Source of the DNA: a virus
Virus record (IMG/VR): IMGVR_UViG_3300009432_001268
Location: 1-64,000 of that record
Direction: 5' to 3' (one strand)
Length of the DNA stretch: 64,000 nt
A program made the translations under genes and the position numbers. The notes under the pieces are model-generated. The model saw nothing but the letters and a program-made list of their open reading frames with translations, was not told the DNA's origin and did not search any database. Below, piece after piece: positions 233 through 49,833 of the stretch. Numbering within the stretch: position 1 is the first letter of the stretch; the number at the start of each line of letters is the position of its first letter.

Positions 233-577
233 TTATTTTATCTCATCTGAAGGCTTTTGAGGGTAGGACTGGGAATAATCACATTCTCCATAAAAATAAT
301 TATCTAATTGCTCAGATAACCTCACTTTAGCTACTTCGAGGTCAACTTCGTACCATTCATTCTTTATCTGTGTGGCGAATCGGCTCATTTGCTCTTTTAT
401 ATTCTTTTCTGCTTGAAGATATTCCGGATGTTGAATAGAATAAATAACTTCATAATCTCTGAATGGAGAACCGGTTTGATAAGTTTGAAGCCGCTTTTTT
501 AAATTCCGGGTTGTCCCTACTTTTATCCACCCCTGCCAAGATTTGTTTGTTATAATGTACAAATATCCCGACGGCAT
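233..577 (-). CDS. GIY-YIG-like / T5orf172 (MUG113) domain protein
   Basis: GYLYII...WIKVGTT.NLKKRLQTYQTGSP...AE...NEWY pattern typical of T5orf172. Confidence 0.8.
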   Translation of the reverse strand: MPSGYLYIITNKSWQGWIKVGTTRNLKKRLQTYQTGSPFRDYEVIYSIQHPEYLQAEKNIKEQMSRFATQIKNEWYEVDLEVAKVRLSEQLDNYFYGECDYSQSYPQKPSDEIK

Positions 578-799: not shown

Positions 800-1307
800 T
801 TTCGAGTTCTGACGTTGGAATATTATAACAATCTGCGGTAAACTTGAAAGGGTAATTGGGGGAAGAGTCCGGATCAAGTTCTCCTTTTTTCCTAAAAACT
901 GCCTTTTTATAAAATTCCTCTTTTGAAATACTTCCGAGATACCACGCCGTCTTCTTGTCGTTTAGGACGCTAACAAATGCATATCTGTCACATTTTTGCT
1001 TAGTATTGAAGTCGGCGACGGTGCAATTATAATTGGCTCGGGGGGCTACCTTACGCTCTTTGGTCTTTACATCTATTTTCACTCCGTTTCGGTCTATCAA
1101 GTCGTAATCGTAAGTGTCCTTGATCTCGCCCCCTTCGAGGTGTAAGACTAAGGCTTCCCCAATGTAGGCCACCAGCCCTCCCTTTCCCTTTCTAATGGAG
1201 TTGTTAAGAAGGGGTAGGTCAGCCGCTCTTTGTTCAGCTTTTTTTCGAGTCGCTGGGCTTATCGTGTATGGTTTTAAAGGAGGCTCTGCCCCAAATAATT
1301 TTTTCAT
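792..1307 (-). CDS. putative PD-(D/E)xK restriction-endonuclease-like protein
   Basis: GE...YDYDL...KIDVKTK catalytic-like motif. Confidence 0.55.
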   Translation of the reverse strand: MKKLFGAEPPLKPYTISPATRKKAEQRAADLPLLNNSIRKGKGGLVAYIGEALVLHLEGGEIKDTYDYDLIDRNGVKIDVKTKERKVAPRANYNCTVADFNTKQKCDRYAFVSVLNDKKTAWYLGSISKEEFYKKAVFRKKGELDPDSSPNYPFKFTADCYNIPTSELENG

Positions 1308-2017
1308 TTCTTTTGCATCCTTTCAATGATTTCGAACATTTTGATACGCGGGATGTCTTTAATTGAACCCCAACCGTCTGCCCCGTCCACAGCTTCCTTG
1401 ACCATTTTATCCTTAATGCTGGCGAAGCTTACTTTCTTCTCTTTCATTAGGGTGTTTAGGTAGATGTCCGGCGAAGCTGCATTCTTATTAGCGCTTGGTT
1501 TTGATATTTTCACATTTTTAATTTCTTCTTTAGCTACAATGTTGATGCGCAGGAAGTTGCGTACTGCTCGACAGAAAGCACGATTCTCGGCTATTGCAGC
1601 AAGATACATTTGGCCGAAGCCTTCGGTGTTGTTTAGTCCTGCGTCCGCTACGCTTTGAAAAAGTACAGATTCCATTTTTTCAGTCTCGTAATTTCCTATC
1701 CAAACTATTGAGCACGAAACACATACGTATTCGGGAGAAGCGTGTGTCACTGTGTAGGTGACAGAGTGGAAGCCCCTTATATTAGCTAAGTCCTTGAGTC
1801 CCCCAAGAAGGATAATCAACTCATGATCTTCGAGTTTAGAGATGTCGGCCTCGTCTGTCCGGTCTCTATTCGCTACTAGAAACTCCGGCTTGACCATCTT
1901 TCGCCAATTAACAGATCCATCGTCGCTAAAAATATATTTAACGTTCTTATCTTCCATCAAGCCGTATTCGTTACGCTTGAATGTGGTTGGCGGCTTATTT
2001 ATTACAGTAGTTCCCAT
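1304..2017 (-). CDS. putative single-strand annealing protein (Rad52/Erf/Sak-like)
   Basis: C-terminal AIAENRAFCRAVRNFLRINIVAKEEI resembles the AE(T)RA..RA......EE helix of Rad52-fold annealases. Confidence 0.5.
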   Translation of the reverse strand: MGTTVINKPPTTFKRNEYGLMEDKNVKYIFSDDGSVNWRKMVKPEFLVANRDRTDEADISKLEDHELIILLGGLKDLANIRGFHSVTYTVTHASPEYVCVSCSIVWIGNYETEKMESVLFQSVADAGLNNTEGFGQMYLAAIAENRAFCRAVRNFLRINIVAKEEIKNVKISKPSANKNAASPDIYLNTLMKEKKVSFASIKDKMVKEAVDGADGWGSIKDIPRIKMFEIIERMQKK

Positions 2018-2026
2018 ACGTCCTGA

Positions 2027-2055
2027 AGACTAACTCAATTGGGGTAAGGTGTCAA
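2027..2055 (-). promoter_or_regulatory. sigma70-like promoter, CCCC-box class
   Basis: TTGACA-CCTTA-CCCC-AATTGAGT-TAGTCT, 17-nt spacer, 9 nt before ATG 2017. Confidence 0.7.
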
Positions 2056-2065
2056 CACTTAAAAT

Positions 2066-2137
2066 ATGCAGGTTCTTTGCCGGTACAACCACTCGGGAAG
2101 GAGAACCTGCGAACAACCCTCCTTTTTTGTGGCAGTA
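2066..2137 (-). ncRNA. 72-nt structured RNA element, copy A
   Basis: 61/72 identical, no gaps, to 38784-38855; nested stems plus GCAGGUUCU/AGAACCUGC pairing. Confidence 0.65.
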
Positions 2138-2142
2138 TGCTC

Positions 2143-3327
2143 TCACTCTTTTTTGACAAAGAAGTGAAAATGCTCCTCCTCTTCCCAGAAAAGAGGGTCA
2201 TCGATTACAGGCTGAGGGTCGTGCTGCATCGAAGGGCTTCCTTGGATATTTTTCGAGTAAGCAGCGGTGCTGGGATAAAAATTATTGTTATGAATGATGA
2301 AGTGAGTAGATTTATAATACAAATTTTCAAGGCCTTTGAGTTCTTCAAAATCGCTTTGAGAACGCGTAGGCATCTGGTTTACAAGTCCGTAATCCAAGTA
2401 GTCCAGCTTGAAGTCGCTTGTTTGTTCTTTCTCCTTGCGGCTCCTCAACAAGTAAGTGATAGATTTCTCCTTAACCTTTTGGATGAAGGAGGGGTCATTA
2501 TCATCCTCGACATAGTAAACTAACTCCACAATTTTTTTGTGGTATTGGTTTAAAATTTCATCGCTAAGGGGCCTATTTGTAATGATAGAGCACTCGCAAG
2601 ACTCCAGTTGTTTACGTAATACATCTTCGTTGAAGTTTAAATCCATTCGTATTATCAAGGACGAGACTCCAAATTTTTTCGTATCCAAGAGGTGAGTAAG
2701 AGTAGACTCTATTCTTGGTCGATGAAAAGAACCCCCTATCTTTACCGTTTCAAATTCAGGAACGAAGGTGTGTATTCCGGCAAAATTAAGAATTTTTTTG
2801 GCTACCTCCTCAGGTTTAATAGAGTTTATGGATTTTGGGTTTTCGTTGGGGTTAAACGATGGTTTGCGAGAACTCTGCGGTTTAAGGATTTCCAAGTTGT
2901 CCTCGTCCGTCCAGTAAGGAAGAAATTGGCTTGGGTAGCAATTATTGGAAAACAATACAACTGACTTCTTGTTGTAAGTCGAGGCTAGGTGAGAGGATTC
3001 GTTATTGGGACAAACGTGCATAAGTGATTTACTAATGACGTAGGCTTTTTGGTTAAAGTTGCATTGCCCTAGTGTCATATAGCATTGTCGGAGTGGGATG
3101 CAATCTTTGTTGCCGAGCTGAATAATTTTGATGCCCTGCTCTTCCAGTTTGGCATGGATGAGGTCGATGACAAGCTGCCAGTGGTCATACGTAAGCGCAG
3201 ACGTTCCTAGGTTGGACGTATCGATTGTTATGAATTTGTCGACCGCTAAAGGGAAATATTTTTCATAAACGGTAGCCCTGTCGATTTTTAAGTCGTTTTG
3301 TAAAGCGTATGATTCTAAAACGTGCAT
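2143..3327 (-). CDS. GT9 (heptosyltransferase-like) C-terminal domain protein with extra C-terminal region
   Basis: YDHWQLVI...IIQLG...NQKAYVISKS...SSHLASTYNKKSVVLF matches the GT9 C-domain pattern. Confidence 0.6.
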   Translation of the reverse strand: MHVLESYALQNDLKIDRATVYEKYFPLAVDKFITIDTSNLGTSALTYDHWQLVIDLIHAKLEEQGIKIIQLGNKDCIPLRQCYMTLGQCNFNQKAYVISKSLMHVCPNNESSHLASTYNKKSVVLFSNNCYPSQFLPYWTDEDNLEILKPQSSRKPSFNPNENPKSINSIKPEEVAKKILNFAGIHTFVPEFETVKIGGSFHRPRIESTLTHLLDTKKFGVSSLIIRMDLNFNEDVLRKQLESCECSIITNRPLSDEILNQYHKKIVELVYYVEDDNDPSFIQKVKEKSITYLLRSRKEKEQTSDFKLDYLDYGLVNQMPTRSQSDFEELKGLENLYYKSTHFIIHNNNFYPSTAAYSKNIQGSPSMQHDPQPVIDDPLFWEEEEHFHFFVKKE

Positions 3328-35137: not shown

Positions 35138-37072
35138 ATGAAACAAGACACCGCTATCATCACCCCCGACTTTCTAAAGAAGTATAAAAATAAACAACCT
35201 AAGTGGGGCTTTAACGGCTTGGGGTACATCGTTTACAAGAGAACCTATTCTCGCGCCAAGGCAGACGGAACCCTCGAAGAATGGCACGAAACCGTAGCTC
35301 GATGCATTAACGGAGCTCAAAAAATAGGCGCTAAGTATACCAAAAAGGAAGCGGAAAGATTATTCGATTTAGTTTTTAATTTAAAATGCAACTTCGCAGG
35401 TCGCGGACTCTGGCAACTAGGAACCTCTACCGTTGATCGATTCGGAGGAAACAGTTTGCTTAATTGTTGGTTTACGGCCATCAAGAAGCCGGAGGACTTT
35501 TGTTTTATTTTCGAGAACTTAATGCTCGGAGGAGGAGTAGGCTACTCCATTAGAAGGGAAGACATTCACGAGCTTCCTCGCGTCAAAAAGAACGTAGGAA
35601 TTACCGTACAGAACACTAATGACGCAGACTTTATTGTGTCAGACAGCAGAGAAGGATGGGTAAGATTACTGTCTAAAGTCTTAGATTCCTACTTTTTCTC
35701 GGGAAAATCTTTTTCGTACTCTACCGTTCTTGTTAGGAGCGCCGGGAAACCCATTCAGGGTTTTGGCGGTACAGCCAGCGGCCCTGAAATCTTAATTGAA
35801 GGAATAAGCAAGATAGGTGGAGTAATAAAAGCCAGAGAAGGTAAAAAGCTTCGAAGCTTGGATGTTTTAGATATCGCCAATATCATTGGCTCTGTTGTTG
35901 TGGCCGGTAATGTTCGCCGTTCCGCTGAAATAGCCTTGGGAGACCCTGACGACTACCTATATATAAAAGCAAAGCGCTGGGACTTGGGCAATATCCCTAA
36001 CTGGAGAGCCATGAGTAACAATACCATCTATTGCGACAGCTACGATCATATCGCAGAAGGTATTTGGGATGGTTACGGGGGCAACGGAGAGCCTTACGGA
36101 TTCTTTAACCTTGGCCTAAGTTCCAAGTTTGGGCGGACAGGAGAAAAAAGCAAAGAAAACTGCGAAGGCACCAACCCTTGCGGAGAAATTTCGCTCGCAG
36201 ATAAAGAGTGCTGCAATTTAGCGGAACTTTATTTAAACAACATTGAGTCGAAGCAGGAAATGATTGAATGCGCAACGCTTCTTTACAAAACTCAAAAAGC
36301 AATCTGTGCTCTCCCATTTATCCACGAAGACACAAATAAAATTGTCCACAAGAACTTTAGAATAGGACAAGGCATTACTGGAATTTGCCAATGCCTTCAT
36401 GACGACAAACTTGAATGGCTTGACGACTGTTACAAAGCTCTACGCAAATACGACCAAGAATGGAGCAAGAAGAATGGATGGCCAGAGAGCATAAAGCTCA
36501 CTACTGTGAAGCCCAGCGGAACCTTAAGTCTCCTAGCTGGAGCAACTCCGGGAGTTCACCCCGCTTTTTCTCAGTACTACATCAGGAGGGTTAGGATGTC
36601 GAGTGAAGATGCACTGGTTCAAATTTGCCGCGAAATGAACTACCACGTTGAGTACGTCAAGAATTTTGATGGCTCCCTAAATCGCGATACGGTCGTTGTG
36701 GAGTTTCCCTGCAAATCAGGCAAGAACGCCGTGCTTGCGGAAGACACAAAAGCAACCGATCAGCTAGAGCTGGTAAAGAGAATACAAAAAGAGTGGTCTG
36801 ACAACGCAGTTTCTTGCACCGTCTATTACAAAAAAGAAGAGCTGGAAGAGATAAAAGAATGGCTAAGGAAAAACTACAAAAACAACATTAAAAGTGTTTC
36901 TTTCTTATTGCACCAAGATCACGGCTTCGACCAAGCTCCTTACGAAAAAATAGACGAAGAAACCTACCGAAAACTTTCTCTAGCCGTCAAAAAAGTAACT
37001 CCAGCTAAAGTCGGGAACGGTCACGTGCTGGAAGGACTTGAATGCGAAGGGGGAGCATGCCCGATAAGATAA
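35138..37072 (+). CDS. nrdJ: class II adenosylcobalamin-dependent ribonucleotide reductase (monomeric RTPR type)
   Basis: YKRTYSR, AGRGLW, NC, AGNVRRSA, TNPCGE, CNL, TTVKPSGT, C-terminal CEGGACP. Confidence 0.95.
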   Translation: MKQDTAIITPDFLKKYKNKQPKWGFNGLGYIVYKRTYSRAKADGTLEEWHETVARCINGAQKIGAKYTKKEAERLFDLVFNLKCNFAGRGLWQLGTSTVDRFGGNSLLNCWFTAIKKPEDFCFIFENLMLGGGVGYSIRREDIHELPRVKKNVGITVQNTNDADFIVSDSREGWVRLLSKVLDSYFFSGKSFSYSTVLVRSAGKPIQGFGGTASGPEILIEGISKIGGVIKAREGKKLRSLDVLDIANIIGSVVVAGNVRRSAEIALGDPDDYLYIKAKRWDLGNIPNWRAMSNNTIYCDSYDHIAEGIWDGYGGNGEPYGFFNLGLSSKFGRTGEKSKENCEGTNPCGEISLADKECCNLAELYLNNIESKQEMIECATLLYKTQKAICALPFIHEDTNKIVHKNFRIGQGITGICQCLHDDKLEWLDDCYKALRKYDQEWSKKNGWPESIKLTTVKPSGTLSLLAGATPGVHPAFSQYYIRRVRMSSEDALVQICREMNYHVEYVKNFDGSLNRDTVVVEFPCKSGKNAVLAEDTKATDQLELVKRIQKEWSDNAVSCTVYYKKEELEEIKEWLRKNYKNNIKSVSFLLHQDHGFDQAPYEKIDEETYRKLSLAVKKVTPAKVGNGHVLEGLECEGGACPIR

Positions 37073-37076
37073 TTTT

Positions 37077-37340
37077 ATGCCTAGGGTGAAACACGGAGAA
37101 GGAGAGGCTTCTTTGATGGGCTTTCCGACGGCAAACATAGATCTTGAGTGTGAAAAAGGTGTTTATCTTTGTGAAACGAACTATGGACACGGCCTAGCAA
37201 TTTGCGCTTTTGAAAACGAAGTCGAAGTTCATTTGGTAGGATTTGAAGGCAATATTTATGGGAAAAATCTTGATATAAAAAAAATGAAGCCTATAAACAA
37301 AAGAAGAATTCTCGAAATAGCGATTTTAATCAATGACTAA
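37077..37340 (+). CDS. riboflavin kinase (flavokinase) domain, short
   Basis: HG.G...GFPTAN, GVY, EVHL..F.GNIYG. Confidence 0.75.
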   Translation: MPRVKHGEGEASLMGFPTANIDLECEKGVYLCETNYGHGLAICAFENEVEVHLVGFEGNIYGKNLDIKKMKPINKRRILEIAILIND

Positions 37341-38115
37341 CTCGTCAACCCAATTAGATCACTCAAAAGTAAATATATTTTACCCTGTCATTGGCTATAC
37401 AGGGATGGTTCACTCTGAATACATGATGAGCACCATAAACCTACTACTTTTGTGTAGGCAGAAGGGAATTAATCTCGGCATGAGATCTATTTGGTTTGAG
37501 AGTCTTATAAGTAGAGCAAGGAACGCTTCCGCAGCTTTCATGCTGGCTAAAGACTATACCCACTTGCTTTTTGTGGACACTGACGTAATCTTCGATGCCC
37601 ACGACGTCTTGAAACTAGTAGACCAACAGAAGGAAGTCGTGGTTGGAGTTTACCCCAAAAAATATTGGAGCCATCAAAAAATGCAAGCGATGGGTTCTTC
37701 TGGAAAAATCCCAGAACAGTGGAGACATTTAGCCACGGACTTTTCCACTGAACTCCCGCCAGCATCGTACACTAAAAGCAAAACAGGACAATCGGTGGAG
37801 GCTAACTATGCAGCTACCGGCTTTATGCTAATAAGTCGATCCTGCATAGAAAAAATAATTAAAGCCAGACCTGACATAAAATATACTAATGATATTGACG
37901 GATACATGGATGCCGGAGACAATTTCCATGACATCTTTCAGTGCAAAGTGAACCCTGACACCAAAAAGTACGAAAGCGAAGACTACGGCTTCTGCAAGAT
38001 GTGGAAGTCTTTGGGCGGAGAGATCACCGTTGTCCCAGATATCTCTTTGGGTCACCGCGGGTTCAACACTTACTATGGAAACCTTAAATTTCAGTCTAAC
38101 TACTTCAATCTTTAA
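37333..38115 (+). CDS. GT-A fold glycosyltransferase-like protein
   Basis: ESLISRARN, THLLFVDTD, G.YPKK, ATGFMLI, SEDYGFC..W, H.G. Confidence 0.75.
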   Translation: MTNSSTQLDHSKVNIFYPVIGYTGMVHSEYMMSTINLLLLCRQKGINLGMRSIWFESLISRARNASAAFMLAKDYTHLLFVDTDVIFDAHDVLKLVDQQKEVVVGVYPKKYWSHQKMQAMGSSGKIPEQWRHLATDFSTELPPASYTKSKTGQSVEANYAATGFMLISRSCIEKIIKARPDIKYTNDIDGYMDAGDNFHDIFQCKVNPDTKKYESEDYGFCKMWKSLGGEITVVPDISLGHRGFNTYYGNLKFQSNYFNL

Positions 38116-38556: not shown

Positions 38557-38778
38557 ATGTCTAATTACCTTAAGATAATGCTGGAGTCCTCGCGCCGATG
38601 CTCGGCCGCTACCCAAGACGCCGCCAACGATGCTCGAAACGCCGCAGACGAAGCCTGCTCTCATGCCAAGGAGATAGACTCTATGGCTACTGAGGCAGCC
38701 AACAGGGCCGTAGAGGCGAACGAGAGGGTCAAGGTCCTCGAAGCTAAGCTAACGGCTCAGAACGCAGATCCTGCCTGA
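38557..38778 (+). CDS. alanine-rich coiled-coil protein
   Basis: AA..A...A heptads. Confidence 0.6.
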   Translation: MSNYLKIMLESSRRCSAATQDAANDARNAADEACSHAKEIDSMATEAANRAVEANERVKVLEAKLTAQNADPA

Positions 38779-38783
38779 TGATT

Positions 38784-38855
38784 TACTACCACGTTAAAGG
38801 AGGGTTGTTCGCAGGTTCTCCTTACTGAGTGGTTGTGTTTTCAAAGAACCTGCAT
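38784..38855 (+). ncRNA. 72-nt structured RNA element, copy B
   Basis: 61/72 identical to the reverse complement of 2066-2137. Confidence 0.65.
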
Positions 38856-38864
38856 TAATTTTTA

Positions 38865-39796: not shown

Positions 39797-40113
39797 AAAT
39801 AATAACCTATATGAAACCATCCTGTGGATGGAGTAATGGAGTTCGAGCAATAATGCGTAAGTACGACTTGCCGTTTGAGGATCGAGATATAATTAACGAC
39901 TCCGAACACCGACAAGAAATGATACAAAAAACAAACCAAATGCTACAACCCTGCGTCGAGATTAACGGCAAAATGCTGGTTGACGTTAGCGGTGAAGAAG
40001 TCGAAGCTTACCTGTTGTCTAATAGTCTGGTGAACATCAACGAAAAAGAGGCAGACGTTCCCACTGACCGAGCATGCGAAAGTGAAACGGTTAATGTTAA
40101 ATTTAAACCATGA
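39793..40113 (+). CDS. glutaredoxin-like protein (CGWS)
   Basis: Y.KPSCGWS, TNQ..QPCVEING. Confidence 0.85.
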   Translation: MKIITYMKPSCGWSNGVRAIMRKYDLPFEDRDIINDSEHRQEMIQKTNQMLQPCVEINGKMLVDVSGEEVEAYLLSNSLVNINEKEADVPTDRACESETVNVKFKP

Positions 40114-40523: not shown

Positions 40524-41171
40524 ATGGAGAAAGAGAAGGGGGCGAAAAAACATGATCTTTTTATCACCGACTTGTGGGAGTTTGACTTCCCTTACCATGA
40601 TCAATTCAAACCTCAGGTTCTAGACTTCGTTGCTTCTTCGAAACCTCAAGAGCACATTAACCAAACAGGAAACCCGTCTTTAAATTCTTATGGAGGAGAT
40701 GAGTTGAGTTTTGACGAAGATAGAAGCATCTTCTCTTTTTTTAAGACTCAAGCCCTTAAGCTTCTAAAAGAAGTCGAAAAAATCCATGATTGGGACAGCG
40801 GGGAATGGGATCGTCTTGATCCGTGGTTAAATGTAAACCGAAAAGGAAACTTTAACCCTCCTCACGTGCATCCGGGAAACGATTATTCAGGATGCTACTA
40901 CGCCAGCTTTCCGGAGAACTCAGGACTTATTCATTTTCTAGACCCTCGCCCTCAACACAGATTCTCATCCCCTAACCCTAAAAGTAAAGAAAATGAAAAC
41001 TGGTACCTTTCAGATAACCCTTACGACACAAGTTTATTTACTCACAAAATAAAGGAGGGAAAAGTTGTTATATTCCCCTCTTGGCTCACCCACTATGTCG
41101 ACCCCAACCCTACCGACTCCCTTAGGATATCCATCCCCTTTAACGCTAAATATACCCAGTATGGAAATTAA
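40524..41171 (+). CDS. 2OG-Fe(II) oxygenase (TIGR02466-like)
   Basis: W.NVN..G.FN.PHVH, SGCYY, DPR, IFPSWL.H.V.PN, RISI.FN. Confidence 0.9.
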   Translation: MEKEKGAKKHDLFITDLWEFDFPYHDQFKPQVLDFVASSKPQEHINQTGNPSLNSYGGDELSFDEDRSIFSFFKTQALKLLKEVEKIHDWDSGEWDRLDPWLNVNRKGNFNPPHVHPGNDYSGCYYASFPENSGLIHFLDPRPQHRFSSPNPKSKENENWYLSDNPYDTSLFTHKIKEGKVVIFPSWLTHYVDPNPTDSLRISIPFNAKYTQYGN

Positions 41172-41373
41172 AAAAGAAAACTTAATCTATTTCGTTAACT
41201 TTGTGAACGAATGTTGCGCCGTAATGGACGACGACTATGTTGGGGAGTGGGTTACCACTCCAAATTCAGATCTGAACATGGAGAGACCCTTTGATTTAAT
41301 AGGTGAGGAAGTTGGTAGAAATAAACTTTACCGCCTTTTATATTTTATTGGAATAGGCGAGGCCGACCTTTAA
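41161..41373 (+). CDS. Xre/MbcA/ParS antitoxin C-terminal-domain-like protein
   Basis: EWVTTPNSDLNMERPFDLI...G...L..LL..I..G. Confidence 0.6.
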   Translation: MEIKKENLIYFVNFVNECCAVMDDDYVGEWVTTPNSDLNMERPFDLIGEEVGRNKLYRLLYFIGIGEADL

Positions 41374-44300
41374 ACTTCTGGAACACTACTTACTATAACA
41401 GTCGTGCCATCGGGAAATTGGGTTCGGGTAACCAAGAAAACTACTCCGTTAACAGTTTCTCGATTCGTAAAGTTCGTGACATTGGAGCTACTGGCCGGAA
41501 TATCGTCTTGGTTATTTATCTCAAATTCAACCACGGTAGCGTCCAGCAAGACCTCAAAGTTCCCTACTGTATCGTTAGTTCCTCCCGAAAATATCAAAGA
41601 GGTATCCCCTTTTACCTCTATGGCCCCTTTAGGAACCGTAACCGTTATCTTTTCGTCTGAATTAAGAACGAACAGGGCCTCAAGTGGAGCTCCACTGTAT
41701 GTGTCAAAAAACACCCCAGTTACAGGAGTAAACCCAGCACCAGAAACCTCAATAGTCGACCCCGTTATGCCTCTGCTCGGGGAGTAGCCTGTAGCGTTTA
41801 CCTGTGTTCCTTGGATAATAAATTCATCAGGGAACCTAGTTACCTGATTGGCTAAATAACCAGCAGAAACTGAGGATGAATAGCCCTCTTGAGAAGGAAG
41901 ATCCCAAGGATTACTAATGAATAACTTTCCTGTTCCAACAAACCCGTCATCGATTTGAAAATCAATAGTATTGTAAAAAGTATTGGGATAAGATTCGATA
42001 CCGCTCCCCGAACTAAAACCGCTAATCGGCCAAAGATGAACTTGGTTTATTCCATTAGAGTTACCTGTCCCTGAAATCCCCACGCTAAGTGACCCACTAG
42101 TCATAGACCCATCGCTATTCAACCCTGTTATTCTAATACTGCTCCCCGAAACCACCGTGTTAGAGACGTTAAAACCAGTCACCCCTGTTATTACAGCCAG
42201 CGGAAAAACTTCAGACAATGAATTTGATGCGTTTGGATTTTCCCTTCCAGATATAAAAATATCCCCAAACTTAATTCCGGTTGGAACTAAAGCCGTTATA
42301 GTCTCTACCCCAAGACTGCTGGTAGAGTTGGTCAAATTTTCGGAGCTCACTGACCCCCCTAGTGGATTAATAAAGTTAACATCCAAACCGGTTACGTTTT
42401 GACCGCTAAGGGTAAAAGTATGACCGGGAAGAAAATAGTTAGAAAATCCAGATATTTTTGTGACGTTAATCTCTGAGGGAGACTCAGTTACTCGGCCCTT
42501 AAAATCTCGCAGCTCAAAAATACCACTTCCGCTGTTTATTAAAGTGGGGACCTGAAAGGATAATATTGAAGGGGTTTTTTGGTTAAAAGTATTTAATATA
42601 AAAGAGGATGAGCTTCCCGAGAAAGCCACGCCCGTAACTAAATGCATCCTGTCCCCAGTAACGGACATGAAGTCTCCCTCCTTAAAGACTTGGTCATCAT
42701 TAAATGTTTCGGGCTTCTCTTCCATGCCCAAATAAAATCCACTGATAGAAGGCTTACTGGGAGACACTCCTAACACTCTAATTGAAGAAGCAAACCCACC
42801 GCTTGTGTTTACATTTATTGTGTCACTAGGAGAATTGTCTGGAATGACAAAAGTAAAACCTGTCTCTGATGGGTGAGAGTAGCCAGACACCACGTAGTTT
42901 GGCCCAACAGAAAGACCGCTTTCTTTTATTCCCTCAAAATAACCGGAAACACTTATCGACTCTCCGAATTCTCCACTTAAAGGCTCGAACCCACTTAAAG
43001 TGGGAGACTTAAAAGTACCAATTGTTTGCAGAGTACTATATGACCTTTTATTCTTAACCCTTAATTTATAATTAATTCCAGTTTGAAATGAGTTAGGGTA
43101 GTCAAAAACTATCTCGGTATTATTAGCGTTATATCCACTAACAGGAAGTTCACCCATAAAACGAGAAGGAGCTGCATTATGGTCCTGAAGGAAAACCCGC
43201 GTTCCTGAATAGAGATTTGTACCTATTATTGTCCCCGTAGAACCGGGCTGAACTTCTGTAGAAGGAGTAACAGAAGTTATAGTAGGTGTCCCTAACCCAA
43301 AGAAACCATTGGATACAGTTGTAGTTCCAAAAAATCCTGAGGCTGTTACGTTAAAGCTTTCCCCCAAAGTCCCCACGGGCATTGAGCTAGAAAGAGAAAG
43401 GGATATGGATTCTCCCGGCACACCACCTATTATTGTGGTGACAGCCTCAGAACCCACTCCCACGTTTCCTCCGTTAACAGGAACTAAATTTACACCCGTA
43501 ACAGAATAGAGATCACTTCCTTGAATTTGAAGGATGTCTCCCGCCACCCCAGAAGAAGGGGTAATGCTAGTTATTTTCGGCGCGCCAATAGCGGGAGTAA
43601 ATGTAAAATCGGAAGGGTACTCTTCTGGATAAGAGTTGGAATAAAGAAAAACACTACTAGAAGAAATGGAAGGGTCAAGTCCCGCCGCTAAATTGCCTCC
43701 AGAGGTCATTATGCTAATACCTGAAGGTACAACTCCTGTAAGCTTAGTGTCATCAACTAAAGCAAAATTTCCTGTTTGCCCTCCTATATTCACTAAATAC
43801 TTCTCAAACTCTATCCCTGAATACAAAATACCCGAAGTGAAATTCTTCCCAGATATATGCGTAATGTCTCCGGTTTCTATAGCGTTTCTTATTCCCGTTA
43901 TCTCCGCTAACGGTTTGAAATTTATATCTGAGGAAGCCGTTACCGAAACACCGCTCTTCAAAAGAAGGTTTGGAACTCCTCTCACGTTTCCGCTTGGAAC
44001 GGTGCCTTGTACGGTCGTGGAATTAGGGACAGCTATGTCTCCAAACTCTATAGAATTAACGGAAAACCCTGTTACTCCAGACATGGACAGCCCTTGAACC
44101 GTCAGGGTCTCTCCAGAGGTTAACTGCCCAGCGCTTAGCCCTGTAACTTCGGCAATAGGAACAAATTCATTATAGCTAATTCCACTAGCCTCAGAAAGGC
44201 TACCAAGTAAACCCGTCCTCAATGATGAGAAAACCGTAACGCCCCCATAGTCTGCGTTTGACGGCACTAAAACCTGTATTTCTTGGTCAGATATTCCAAA

Positions 44301-47863: not shown

Positions 47864-49099
47864 ATGCCTGACTACAATCCATCAACCGAAAGGGCTAAAT
47901 CATCAATAAAATCCCTTAATTTTGAACTAACTAATCTAACACCTTCATCTGTGGTGACTTTTTTTGAAATAGATATTAGTTCTATTTTAAAAGATAAAGG
48001 GATTGTCCCAGACCTGACAAAAGAGGCGGAAAGTATTGGGTTTGCGCCTGCTAAAGATGTAGCGGATGGGATATTGCGGTTTCATAACAATATAAAGATT
48101 TTTAACTCCTACGTAGTCTGGCAAGGCAAGACTTACTACCCAGCCCCAATTCAAGCAGAAGGGTTCGAGTCTACCAGCAAAGGTGTTCTCCCTAGGCCCA
48201 CCTTAAGCATTGCTAGCCAATCACAAACTGGATCCGACCAACTAGCCCTACTTAAACATGAAATAAGAAAACTTGGAGACATAATCAATGCAAAAGTTAC
48301 ACGTCGCCGAACCTTTGCTAAATATATAGACAGGGTTAACTTTCTTGGTCAAAGCGCAAAATCCACTCGAAGCTCAGGCACCTTACCCCAAGGCTACGAA
48401 CCTGACCCGTATGCAGAACTACCCAAGGATATTTACTTCATAGAAAGAAAAGCAACAGAAAACAAAAACGTGCTTACTTACGAACTCTCTTCTATACTTG
48501 ATCTGGAAGGTATTAAAATCCCGAAGAGGGTAATAGTATCTGACAAATGCGTGTGGCAGTATAGGGGCATCGGCTGCTGGTACCAAGACGCGGGAAAAGA
48601 CAAGGTGGATGGAGAAAATATGGTCCCGCTTTTGAACAAGGCGGAACTAAATTATCTTGACCCCCCGGCAGGAGCTATTATTACTAATAACACTATCCCC
48701 AATAACGGTCTCCCAAAAAAAGCGCCTCCTGTCGCAACAGAAAATGACGAAAAAATTAATGCTTTACTACCGGCGAACGTTACAGTAAAGGACTCGCCAG
48801 ATAATTCAAAATGGAACGATCTTAAAACATACACCGCAGGAGATTACGTCTACTTGCTAAAAGATAAAATCAAATACTACTTTGTAGCCAAAGCAGCCGT
48901 ACCCGTAGGAATAATTCCCCCAAATACGGAATACTGGGTAGCCGACGAATGCTCCAAAAGCCTCACGGGATGCAGAATGCGTTGGGGTCTTAATGGATCT
49001 TTCAAAAACGGTAATAATTCGAATAATTGTAAAATAAAAGCTGGAGACTTACCCTTCGGAGGGTTTCCAGCAGCAAGAAAGATAGCTCGAGGAGGATGA
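47864..49099 (+). CDS. lambda gpL-like tail tip protein
   Basis: WQG..Y...PIQAEGFE, RRRTFAKY, C.WQYRG.GC, D.CSK...GC..R, PFGGFP. Confidence 0.9.
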   Translation: MPDYNPSTERAKSSIKSLNFELTNLTPSSVVTFFEIDISSILKDKGIVPDLTKEAESIGFAPAKDVADGILRFHNNIKIFNSYVVWQGKTYYPAPIQAEGFESTSKGVLPRPTLSIASQSQTGSDQLALLKHEIRKLGDIINAKVTRRRTFAKYIDRVNFLGQSAKSTRSSGTLPQGYEPDPYAELPKDIYFIERKATENKNVLTYELSSILDLEGIKIPKRVIVSDKCVWQYRGIGCWYQDAGKDKVDGENMVPLLNKAELNYLDPPAGAIITNNTIPNNGLPKKAPPVATENDEKINALLPANVTVKDSPDNSKWNDLKTYTAGDYVYLLKDKIKYYFVAKAAVPVGIIPPNTEYWVADECSKSLTGCRMRWGLNGSFKNGNNSNNCKIKAGDLPFGGFPAARKIARGG

Positions 49100-49833
49100 T
49101 GTTTAAAAAGCAAATAAAAGACTTGATCAAGTCCCATGCCCTTAGAGATAGGCCTCGCGAATGCTGTGGGCTAATACTTCACGACGGCCAAAACATGCAA
49201 GCCTTTCCTTGCCGAAACAGTTCTGAAGAGCCCAAGTCTCATTTTTCCATTCATCCGGGAGACTATACGAGGGGATCTCGTAGGGGAACCATTCAAGCTG
49301 TTTACCATTCCCACAACTCAGACAACGAGAACTTTTCTGTAAATGATAAATTTCACAGCTCTAGCCACGAATTAGACTATGTCCTTTATAACACGGTAAA
49401 AAACAGTTTCTCTTTGTTCGATTACAAGAAAAACAAAACCTTCTTTTATAATCGTTTGTTTAAGATAGGAGAGTCAGACTGCTATACTATCATCAAAGAG
49501 TATTATGCTGATCTTGGAATCAAACTAGAAGGAGAAAACACCTTTGGTAATGATTGGTATAAAAAAAATCCTCAGGTAGTGGGAGAACTTTTTGCGCTTA
49601 ATAAAAAAAATCCAAATTTACCCATAATCGAACTTAACCCATCAACACCTCTCAAAGAACACGACGTAATAGTTTTTGAATTCGTCAAGGGAGCAGGACC
49701 CAATCATGTAGCGGTTTATTTGGGGGATGGAACAATGATTCATCATCCACGAAACAAATACCCCTGCATAGAAAACTTAAACAAGATATATCGGCGAAAG
49801 ATATATAAGATATACAGACACGAAGGACTATGA
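49096..49833 (+). CDS. lambda gpK-like JAB + NlpC/P60 tail assembly protein
   Basis: P.ECCGL, YHSH...S..D, DCY, NHVAVYLG...IHH. Confidence 0.9.
   Translation: MMFKKQIKDLIKSHALRDRPRECCGLILHDGQNMQAFPCRNSSEEPKSHFSIHPGDYTRGSRRGTIQAVYHSHNSDNENFSVNDKFHSSSHELDYVLYNTVKNSFSLFDYKKNKTFFYNRLFKIGESDCYTIIKEYYADLGIKLEGENTFGNDWYKKNPQVVGELFALNKKNPNLPIIELNPSTPLKEHDVIVFEFVKGAGPNHVAVYLGDGTMIHHPRNKYPCIENLNKIYRRKIYKIYRHEGL

Follow-up and report, generated by a model that had tools for sequence, protein, structure and literature searches.

A portable pseudoknotted RNA module at gene boundaries of a phage genome and its relatives

The two copies in the window

The DNA analysed here (the window) comprises positions 1 to 64,000 of the IMG/VR virus record IMGVR_UViG_3300009432_001268 and is phage DNA, with a DnaE-type polymerase, a class II ribonucleotide reductase and virion genes. 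Downstream of two of its genes lie the two copies of a 72-nt element, copy A (2066-2137) and copy B (38784-38855), and both are members of a phage RNA family that is so far uncatalogued and has modules of about 70-77 nt. Comparison of the family members has shown that the module is a covarying three-helix pseudoknot, a strand-specific element of RNA type, that it is dispensable and portable, and that it brackets accessory genes, TnpB-like genes above all.

A repeat search of the window returned the two copies as an inverted pair of 72 nt that is 85% complementary (61/72 identical) and exceeds every other repeat of the window in length by a factor of two, the next inverted pairs measuring 31-35 nt. 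Copy A begins 5 nt past the TGA of a 394-aa gene and copy B 5 nt past the TGA (38776-38778) of a 73-aa gene, where a second in-frame TGA follows (38779-38781). Copy A has its RNA sense on the minus strand and copy B on the plus strand, in both cases the strand of the flanking genes. An earlier reading of the DNA without database searches (the sequence-only reading) had described this pair of 72-nt copies on opposite strands, both 5 nt past a TGA and sense to unrelated genes; the repeat search and the list of open reading frames confirm the description, and the flanking genes are indeed unrelated. The pairings that it had proposed, UACURCCAC/GUGGUUGUR for the outer stem (P1), AAGGAG/CUCCUU for the inner stem (P2) and GCAGGUU/AACCUGC for a pseudoknot, are all present, as is the 9-bp extension of the last pairing that it had offered as an alternative stem; a U.U mismatch at position 4 of P1 in the window copies had gone unmentioned. 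Its count of 11 differences between the copies also agrees: two fall within P1 and retain pairing in both copies, and the other nine lie in the 5' linker (three), the 3' linker (two) and the stretch ahead of CAAAG (four). A 203-nt contig from an RNA library (X20) covers copy A and both flanks, which is weak evidence, as DNA may be present in the library.

Two covariance models built from relatives, R1 and R2, score in the window at just two places, so that the copies are more than a chance resemblance; next to the scores listed below, the next best matches reach 12.0 bits (R1) and 16.1 bits (R2). The latter, at 49396-49456 on the minus strand (E 0.049), lies antisense inside the gene 49096-49833, shows a P1-like stem and AACAAAGAG...U6, and is probably due to chance. 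The parts of the two copies, in the order of the RNA, are:

2143-2145, minus strand: TGA stop of the 394-aa gene (2143-3327), 5 nt ahead of copy A
2061-2137, minus strand: copy A, whole module (77 model positions; R1 96.1 bits, R2 91 bits)
2137-2129, minus strand: copy A, P1 5' strand
2128-2125, minus strand: copy A, A-rich linker
2124-2118, minus strand: copy A, P2 5' strand
2117-2111, minus strand: copy A, loop
2110-2102, minus strand: copy A, pseudoknot 5' strand
2103-2098, minus strand: copy A, P2 3' strand
2097-2093, minus strand: copy A, linker CCCGA
2092-2084, minus strand: copy A, P1 3' strand
2083-2080, minus strand: copy A, variable linker
2079-2075, minus strand: copy A, CAAAG
2076-2068, minus strand: copy A, pseudoknot 3' strand
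2067-2061, minus strand: copy A, beginning of the AU-rich tail
38776-38781, plus strand: TGA TGA, two successive in-frame stops that close the 73-aa gene (38557-38778), directly ahead of copy B
38784-38860, plus strand: copy B, whole module (R1 94.2 bits, R2 91 bits)
38784-38792, plus strand: copy B, P1 5' strand
38797-38803, plus strand: copy B, P2 5' strand
38811-38819, plus strand: copy B, pseudoknot 5' strand
38818-38823, plus strand: copy B, P2 3' strand
38824-38828, plus strand: copy B, linker ACUGA
38829-38837, plus strand: copy B, P1 3' strand
38838-38841, plus strand: copy B, variable linker
38842-38846, plus strand: copy B, CAAAG
38845-38853, plus strand: copy B, pseudoknot 3' strand
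up to 38864, plus strand: copy B, tail, with the ATG of the next gene at 38865

Fold and covariation

The fold of the family consists of the closing helix P1, the short purine/pyrimidine hairpin P2, and a pseudoknot of 7-9 bp between the P2 loop and a 3' strand, which is always preceded by CAAA(G). Between P1 and CAAAG lies a linker of 5-6 nt with fixed length and free sequence. Copies were gathered by pattern scans and covariance models, and the helices were evaluated in model-based alignments. In alignment A5, a model-made alignment of 38 distinct copies, standard pairs occupy 86.4% of the pair cells versus 71.8% in shuffles (0/500 shuffles reach the observed value), while controls with slid partners are 39-49% paired. 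Changes on both sides of a pair occur in all nine pairs of P1 and three of the six of P2, the columns of which had been fitted to the model, and in six of the seven pairs of the pseudoknot, which was absent from the model used to align. The pseudoknot is 96.6% paired across the 38 copies, part of it having been fixed by the query in the copies found with the metagenome pattern.

Fully compensated helices can also be recognised by eye, at L004:6160-6236 (AAGAGUUCU/AGAACUCUU) and at L006:4716-4804 (CUGAUUCU/AGAAUCAG), and in the copies of the AT-rich marine phage L121 the sequences of P1 and of the pseudoknot are individual to each copy. The sequence-only reading had named covariation in homologues as a test of its proposal of an outer stem, an inner stem and an H-type pseudoknot, and compensatory changes were found in all three helices among relatives. 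As the fold includes G.U pairs, it is specific for one strand. P2 is GAGCGGG/CCCGUCUC in the L006 copy and AGAGUG/CACU or AUAG/CUAU in other members; because its sequence is thus replaced, the AAGGAGG of the window copies is structural, and a role as a Shine-Dalgarno site was rejected. Conservation extends to unpaired positions, namely the A-rich 5' linker, the GUU that opens the loop, the YGA past P2 and the CAA(A) ahead of the 3' strand.

The module also occurs in a short form, made up of P1, the A-rich linker, a P2 hairpin whose loop is small, and CUGA, and devoid of the pseudoknot (L021:3711-3778, L045:1064-1119, L029:5599-5654, L013:3714-3786, L050:2064-2131 and L063:~1525-1680). It often lies directly upstream of a full copy and occurs in tandem in L063.

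A U-tract (at least 5 T in the 8 nt past the pseudoknot) is present in 20 of 33 distinct copies, many of which are orthologues, versus 6.1% of flanking windows. Both window copies have 5 T in 8 after the pseudoknot helix; in arrays, the U-tract is mostly found on the last copy.

The linker ahead of CAAAG is the most variable stretch of the module. Among six orthologues of copy A, 66/77 positions are fixed and six linker columns show 3-4 states each, a variability not clearly above that of the most variable flanking sites. The six phages are mosaic, with 2-4 states at spacer and synonymous sites likewise, and L001/L050 is the only pair with like flanks and different linkers. An old, horizontally moving element with a loop of fixed length and free sequence would give the same pattern.

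Distribution and arrays

No match to any Rfam 15 family was found in the whole window at gathering thresholds (cmscan), and nothing credible in the two 141-nt stretches that contain the copies at E values up to 10, in line with the earlier statement that the element matched no recognised family. The best matches below threshold were LhrC, on the opposite strand (22.8 bits versus a threshold of 110), the Na+ riboswitch (11.3 versus 40.5) and the XIST A repeat (11.1 versus 33). No tRNA or tmRNA was found in the window, blastn of both copy neighbourhoods against a phage GenBank collection gave no match, and no description of the module was found in the literature at the level of titles and abstract openings. 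A degenerate pattern, which demanded the conserved core and was thus limited to core-like cellular copies, retrieved 41 loci from GTDB genomes, none of them a true copy according to R1 (best 20.1 bits, E 0.035), and gave no clue to the host. A metagenome pattern returned 32 matches, 13 of which proved to be true copies on reading and 19 to be chance matches in unrelated sequence. This pattern had fixed GGTTCTC, GA and CAAAGAACCTG, so that the invariance of those letters in the 13 copies is partly a matter of ascertainment; copies found via proteins or models are free of that bias.

Relatives of the window phage have a variable region just downstream of the gene for a 237-aa protein, in which accessory genes are separated by one to three tandem copies. 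Tandem arrays of the family around accessory genes occur in marine phages both related and unrelated to that of the window. The order in L004 is the 237-aa gene, two copies, a 171-aa gene, three copies, a gene for a TnpB-like protein of 477 aa (PF07282, 1.8e-12; phrog_506, 3.3e-14) and two copies. Homologues of this TnpB-like protein are found in L005/L006 (54% identity) and L013 (28%). A profile scan of IMG/VR for TnpB-like genes gave 20 loci. R2 matches adjoin the TnpB-like gene in L106 (=L004), L107 (=L006), L013 and L121 at E values from 0.0009 to 5e-11, and in L111 a family member lies beside it at E 0.04; among the distant TnpB loci L113-L120 and L122-L125 there is none at E < 0.04, the sole match being that of L113 (16.2 bits, E 0.049). 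The 79-kb record of L121 (G002) contains three matches at E<0.05, each no more than 2 kb away from the TnpB-like gene; a fourth, weak match (E 0.24) lies far from it at about 72 kb. In L121, a sigma70-type promoter with 12/12 consensus positions and a TG extension is followed by three modules and then by a tRNA, the last copy ending where the tRNA begins:

L121:2499-2860: RNA-only operon, with tRNA-Leu(UAA) at 2773-2860

Downstream of the TnpB-like genes of L006 and L112, the 3' strand and about 15-19 variable nt are repeated four and six times, respectively, which looks like a single scaffold with several alternative 3' modules. The array at L112:2900-3180 has six units of the 11-nt repeat CAAAACUAGUC plus 15-16 nt sharing a YGAGG core; that at L006:6236-6450 (=L108) has four 31-nt units, each of which opens with (C/U)AAAGA(G/A)CCCUU and can pair with one upstream hairpin loop, AAGGGUUCU.

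A tblastn search with the L004 TnpB-like protein found no TnpB-like gene in the window, and profile and Pfam searches found none in the relative G001 (144 kb, 90% complete), which has at least five intact copies; the control search gives a signal in 8 of 14 genomes and in G002. As the TnpB-free window and G001 keep their copies intact, a dependence on TnpB is disfavoured, and strict dependence is contradicted in the lineage of the window. The Y1 transposase PF01797 was found in neither G001 nor G002, with a control signal in 6 of 14 genomes.

Presence and absence at orthologous sites

Site A, the location of copy A, was surveyed in 20 IMG/VR loci that were fetched with the 237-aa protein encoded downstream of copy A, and the DNA upstream of its gene was read. 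The site is filled in five loci (L002, L003, L005, L006 and L021) and empty in 15. In nine closer empties (L004 and L007-L014) the stop TAG directly abuts a TTGAC promoter, and the filled L003 is identical to the empty L004 in its downstream flank, the difference between them being one 90-nt block. Site B is empty in L022, in which the neighbouring protein is 99% identical, 67 nt of the element are missing, and the first 7-8 nt of P1 and the U-rich tail are retained. The same empty joint (38790->38858) is found in a contig of the seawater DNA run X3, whereas in run X6 the site is filled, with one difference. Conversely, a site that is empty in the window, site E, is filled in G001 by a full copy between two convergent genes (L061:1501-1578). 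The two stretches of the window are:

38791-38857, plus strand: segment absent from the empty site B (67 nt; seawater run X3 and IMG/VR L022)
41368-41375: empty site E, where the stops of two convergent genes overlap (about 41370)

Neither target duplications nor terminal inverted repeats were found at the filled and empty junctions of sites A, B and E, and no 4-5-nt target was recognised as common to the left junctions of sites A, B, C/D and E. This precise presence or absence, without duplication or inverted repeats, is what makes the module dispensable and portable. A MITE was rejected on the same comparison of sites A, B and E. Every copy that was read lies on the sense strand after a stop codon.

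In 19 DNA runs from 16 studies, half or more of the words sampled from the copy-B region are present, so that the phage carrying the module is common in seawater DNA, yet the fold is uncatalogued. Filled and empty alleles that coexist in nature also provide a ready test system. Another gap, of 67 nt at 39845-39913 in runs X2 and X3, falls within a coding gene, has no model match and is unrelated to the module. Contigs of the same two runs join 37072 to 37356, 37363 or 37498; since they skip that stretch, the 87-aa gene at 37077-37340 is another natural presence/absence cassette.

Discussion

Membership of a portable family, arrays around TnpB-like and accessory genes, and the patchy distribution of U-tracts are all invisible from the window alone. 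The function tentatively preferred here, with limited confidence, is that of a portable boundary module embedded in the transcript: it would block exonucleases, terminate transcription leakily in copies with a U-tract behind them, and act as a linker for cassette recombination. The module would be transcribed within the operon RNA, fold during synthesis and mark the end of the upstream cistron. Its compact knot would stop 3'-to-5' exonucleases, and in copies with a U-tract, including both window copies (5 U in 8), the pseudoknot helix might serve as the stem of a leaky terminator. Cleavage in the AU-rich tail would leave the next gene with a nearly leaderless start. The invariant core of 27 nt could offer homology enough for phage recombinases to move the module, together with the cassettes that it brackets, between genomes, and such recombinase-driven movement of cassettes would be the reason why the module surrounds accessory genes, including TnpB-like ones, in relatives. 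It is the TnpB-free G001 and the bracketing of unrelated genes that pull towards a boundary module. If this is correct, the family would show how operons are punctuated in phages of hosts that make little use of Shine-Dalgarno sites, and would provide an example of a 70-nt RNA as a linker for the exchange of gene cassettes.

Several observations weigh against this function, which is deduced from the anatomy of the module. Neither window copy is listed in terminator scans, and the 9-bp stem encloses about 24 nt, beyond the canonical loop of 3-8 nt; for these two reasons the element is not a canonical intrinsic terminator, although the U-tract directly follows the stem as it does there. No substitute structure was seen at sites A, B and E of relatives that are free of the element, so that any role in cis would be non-essential. 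The unpaired A-rich linker, YGA, CAAA and GUU persist even in the distant, AT-rich L121; a mere end-cap would not need conserved unpaired bases, which point to a particular tertiary structure or to a partner protein. The association with TnpB-like genes is far stronger than the rarity of the family would lead one to expect. Finally, in the L121 array, which has no coding gene, terminators would make no sense and the modules look like RNA genes. Together, the conserved unpaired bases and this RNA-only operon pull towards a dedicated partner.

The module resembles several known systems in parts and lacks one defining feature of each. Intrinsic terminators likewise have a G+C-containing helix followed by a U-rich run, as found in the 20 copies, and one copy lies between convergent genes as a terminator might; they differ in that their short-loop G+C hairpin is replaced by a helix with about 24 structured nt, that the U-tract is missing in internal copies of arrays, and that the conservation goes far beyond the needs of a terminator. 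Ordinary terminators are also present in the window, for example, just upstream of 34223. PeSL (promoter-early stem-loop) elements (Arbiol et al. 2010) are reportedly mobile regulatory cassettes of T4-type phages, made up of a promoter and a simple hairpin, and may drive the shuffling of cassettes by recombination. Like them, the module is short, conserved and intergenic and brackets accessory genes in variable phage regions, but it has no promoter of its own at copies A and B and its hairpin is replaced by a covarying three-helix pseudoknot with conserved unpaired bases. REP/BIME and PATE, small intergenic repeats of bacteria and archaea, are simple palindromes that are mobilised by RAYT/Y1 transposases and can stabilise upstream mRNA or aid termination. 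They share with the module that they are small, structured, non-coding repeats just past stop codons and polymorphic between strains, and are set apart from it by the pseudoknot fold and by the lack of a detectable Y1 transposase in G001 and G002.

The closest parallel is the omega-RNA (reRNA) of TnpB in the IS200/IS605 OMEGA systems, here compared with ISDra2 (PMC10097598). There, too, a structured sense-strand RNA lies beside TnpB-type genes, the strand at the 3' end of the scaffold is pseudoknotted with an upstream loop, and movement leaves no target duplication; the protein reads a pseudoknot to which the bases immediately 5' of the guide contribute. The differences are that the module is about 72 nt long versus a scaffold of 116 nt with four stems, that its pseudoknot has 7-9 bp versus 3-5, and that it is followed by an AU-rich tail of its own and not by an abutting guide of 16-20 nt. 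The 3' pseudoknot strand is present in the module, 5-12 nt of its own tail precede the old flank, and the left junctions share no motif. Copies lie on both sides of a gene, in arrays and also around unrelated genes, unlike omega-RNA. The position at the 3' end of a tnpB gene, typical of omega-RNA, is found for members in L004, L006, L013, L111 and L121 and not for the window copies.

The main alternative is that the module is an orphan partner RNA of a phage TnpB-like protein, in the manner of omega-RNA, with its pseudoknot and conserved linkers recognised by the protein and its specificity provided by the variable linker or the 3' flank; we regard it as a little less probable than the boundary module. 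The solo copies A and B would then serve a TnpB-like protein encoded elsewhere in the genome or by a co-infecting phage, or be relics, and homing driven by the nuclease would explain the precise presence or absence. The family members directly beside TnpB-like genes, the three G002 matches within 2 kb of such a gene, the promoter-driven L121 array, the fourfold and sixfold repeats of L006 and L112, and the linker that varies while 66/77 positions are fixed are all consistent with a protein partner; the 3'-terminal pseudoknot strand would be analogous to that of the ISDra2 omega-RNA in principle only (PMC10097598). Counter to it stand the absence of a TnpB-like gene from the window and from G001, the similar bracketing of unrelated genes such as the 171-aa gene of L004, the element's own tail, which is unlike the joint between scaffold and guide, and the linker, which at 5-6 nt is too short to guide DNA cleavage and whose variability does not clearly exceed that of the most variable flanking sites. 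An extended form, to which we likewise assign a rather low probability, is that TnpB-like proteins are the basis of an undescribed RNA-protein system of phages to which the module contributes the RNA, combining a compact pseudoknot scaffold with a short, fast-changing specificity loop or with alternative 3' modules. Solo copies, scattered through phage genomes, would then be 'address labels' that spread through homing driven by the nuclease and serve when co-infecting phages are in conflict, and copies A and B would be trans-acting or homing-competent orphans instead of passive punctuation. A TnpB partner would imply a new architecture of RNA-guided or RNA-addressed systems on the path from TnpB to Cas12, with natural multi-module arrays.

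An element acting at the level of DNA, that is, a PATE-like miniature derived from the end of a single-strand transposon of the IS200/IS605 type, with hairpins that act as single-stranded DNA for a Y1 transposase and an RNA fold that is incidental, appears improbable. It would account for the precise presence or absence without target duplication or terminal inverted repeats, for the vicinity of TnpB-like genes and for the strand-specific insertion, the strand also following the probable direction of replication on both arms. However, the Y1 transposase is missing from G001 and G002, the left flanks differ between sites and share no target, and both tips of the element remain at the empty site B, where a clean excision would have removed them; moreover, RNA accords better with the G.U pairs, the long-range pseudoknot and the conserved unpaired bases.

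A small self-cleaving ribozyme, or a dedicated punctuation by an RNase or of the RNase P type that would cut operon RNA at gene boundaries, is a quite improbable candidate to judge from the sequences. Conserved unpaired bases in a compact pseudoknot, tandem arrays and the one copy that ends exactly at the start of a tRNA (L121:2773) would suit it. No Rfam ribozyme matched even at E values up to 10, and the order of helices presumably differs from those of the HDV-like, pistol, twister and hammerhead ribozymes.

The sequence-only reading had proposed a cis-acting switch, and part of this holds: the element is a structured, strand-specific and pseudoknotted element of RNA type, and a processing signal or a leaky terminator is possible. 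A ligand-sensing riboswitch or attenuator that alternates between P1 plus P2 and the 9-bp stem with its U-tail, or a readthrough stimulator, is very improbable, even though the minimum-energy folds of the single sequences differ (a terminator-like stem for copy A, P1 and P2 for copy B), P2 and the long stem compete for 2-3 nt, and the U-to-C changes in L003 and L050b favour P2 and weaken the long stem: the z-scores of the single-sequence folds are weak (-2.45 and -0.46 when longer stretches are folded, -1.36 and -0.52 with shorter ones), all three helices persist side by side, as is expected of a single knotted fold, and the element, which is dispensable, lies at the 3' end of genes ahead of a promoter. 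Instead of a 5'-leader position and a consistent class of regulated genes, the neighbours are unrelated and of no shared family, and the element is absent from near-identical relatives. Readthrough is excluded by the tandem stops, TGA TGA ahead of copy B and, ahead of orthologues of copy A, TAG TAA TGA in L003, L043 and L047 and TAG TAG in L001, where a single leaky stop or slippery site and an open extension frame would be expected for readthrough or frameshifting.

Two further candidates were rejected. A micro-open reading frame, or translational coupling through it, was considered because the frame of the core is open in several copies, but in L001/L057 it is preceded by two TAGs in frame and by no start codon, and the copies do not differ from one another with a codon period. 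A promoter inside the element is at odds with the lack of consistent -10 and -35 sequences across copies on reading and in the scan, and no promoter-like site was listed in the scan at copy B.

Neighbouring genes

Between copy A and the gene for the 237-aa protein lies the following feature:

2027-2055, minus strand: promoter-like TTGACA (2055-2050), 17-nt spacer and TAGTCT (2032-2027), 9 nt ahead of the ATG (2017) of the 237-aa gene

This promoter is not part of the element, because it is unchanged in the empty sites of L004 and L007-L014. The region upstream of the 237-aa gene (2015-2055, minus strand; also relatives L002-L014) consists of TTGACA, a stretch of 17 nt that includes a CCCC box, and a weak -10, with 8-10 nt left before the ATG. 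As only these 8-10 nt separate the -10 from the ATG, a layout kept in the relatives, the mRNA of the gene would be nearly leaderless. An SD-like (Shine-Dalgarno-like) word was found upstream of 20 of 65 picked genes of the window with a loose 4-mer test.

The 237-aa protein (1304-2017, minus strand) belongs to no Pfam or PHROG family. Weak atlas leads connect it with single-strand annealing proteins of the Sak/Rad52 type, with a score of 0.89, which is below the bar of the tool and therefore a lead only; if it were true, a recombinase gene would be flanked by portable modules in many relatives.

The variable region in which relatives have TnpB-like genes contains, in the window, a gene (233-577, minus strand) for a 114-aa protein of the T5orf172/GIY-YIG type (PF10544, 5e-13), which is homing-endonuclease-like. 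The stretch 40524-41373, at the end of the rightward early operon, encodes a 2OG-Fe(II) oxygenase (PF13759, 6e-23), followed by a 102-aa protein with a weak match, below the cut-off, to the C-terminal part of Xre/MbcA/ParS antitoxins (E 5e-4).

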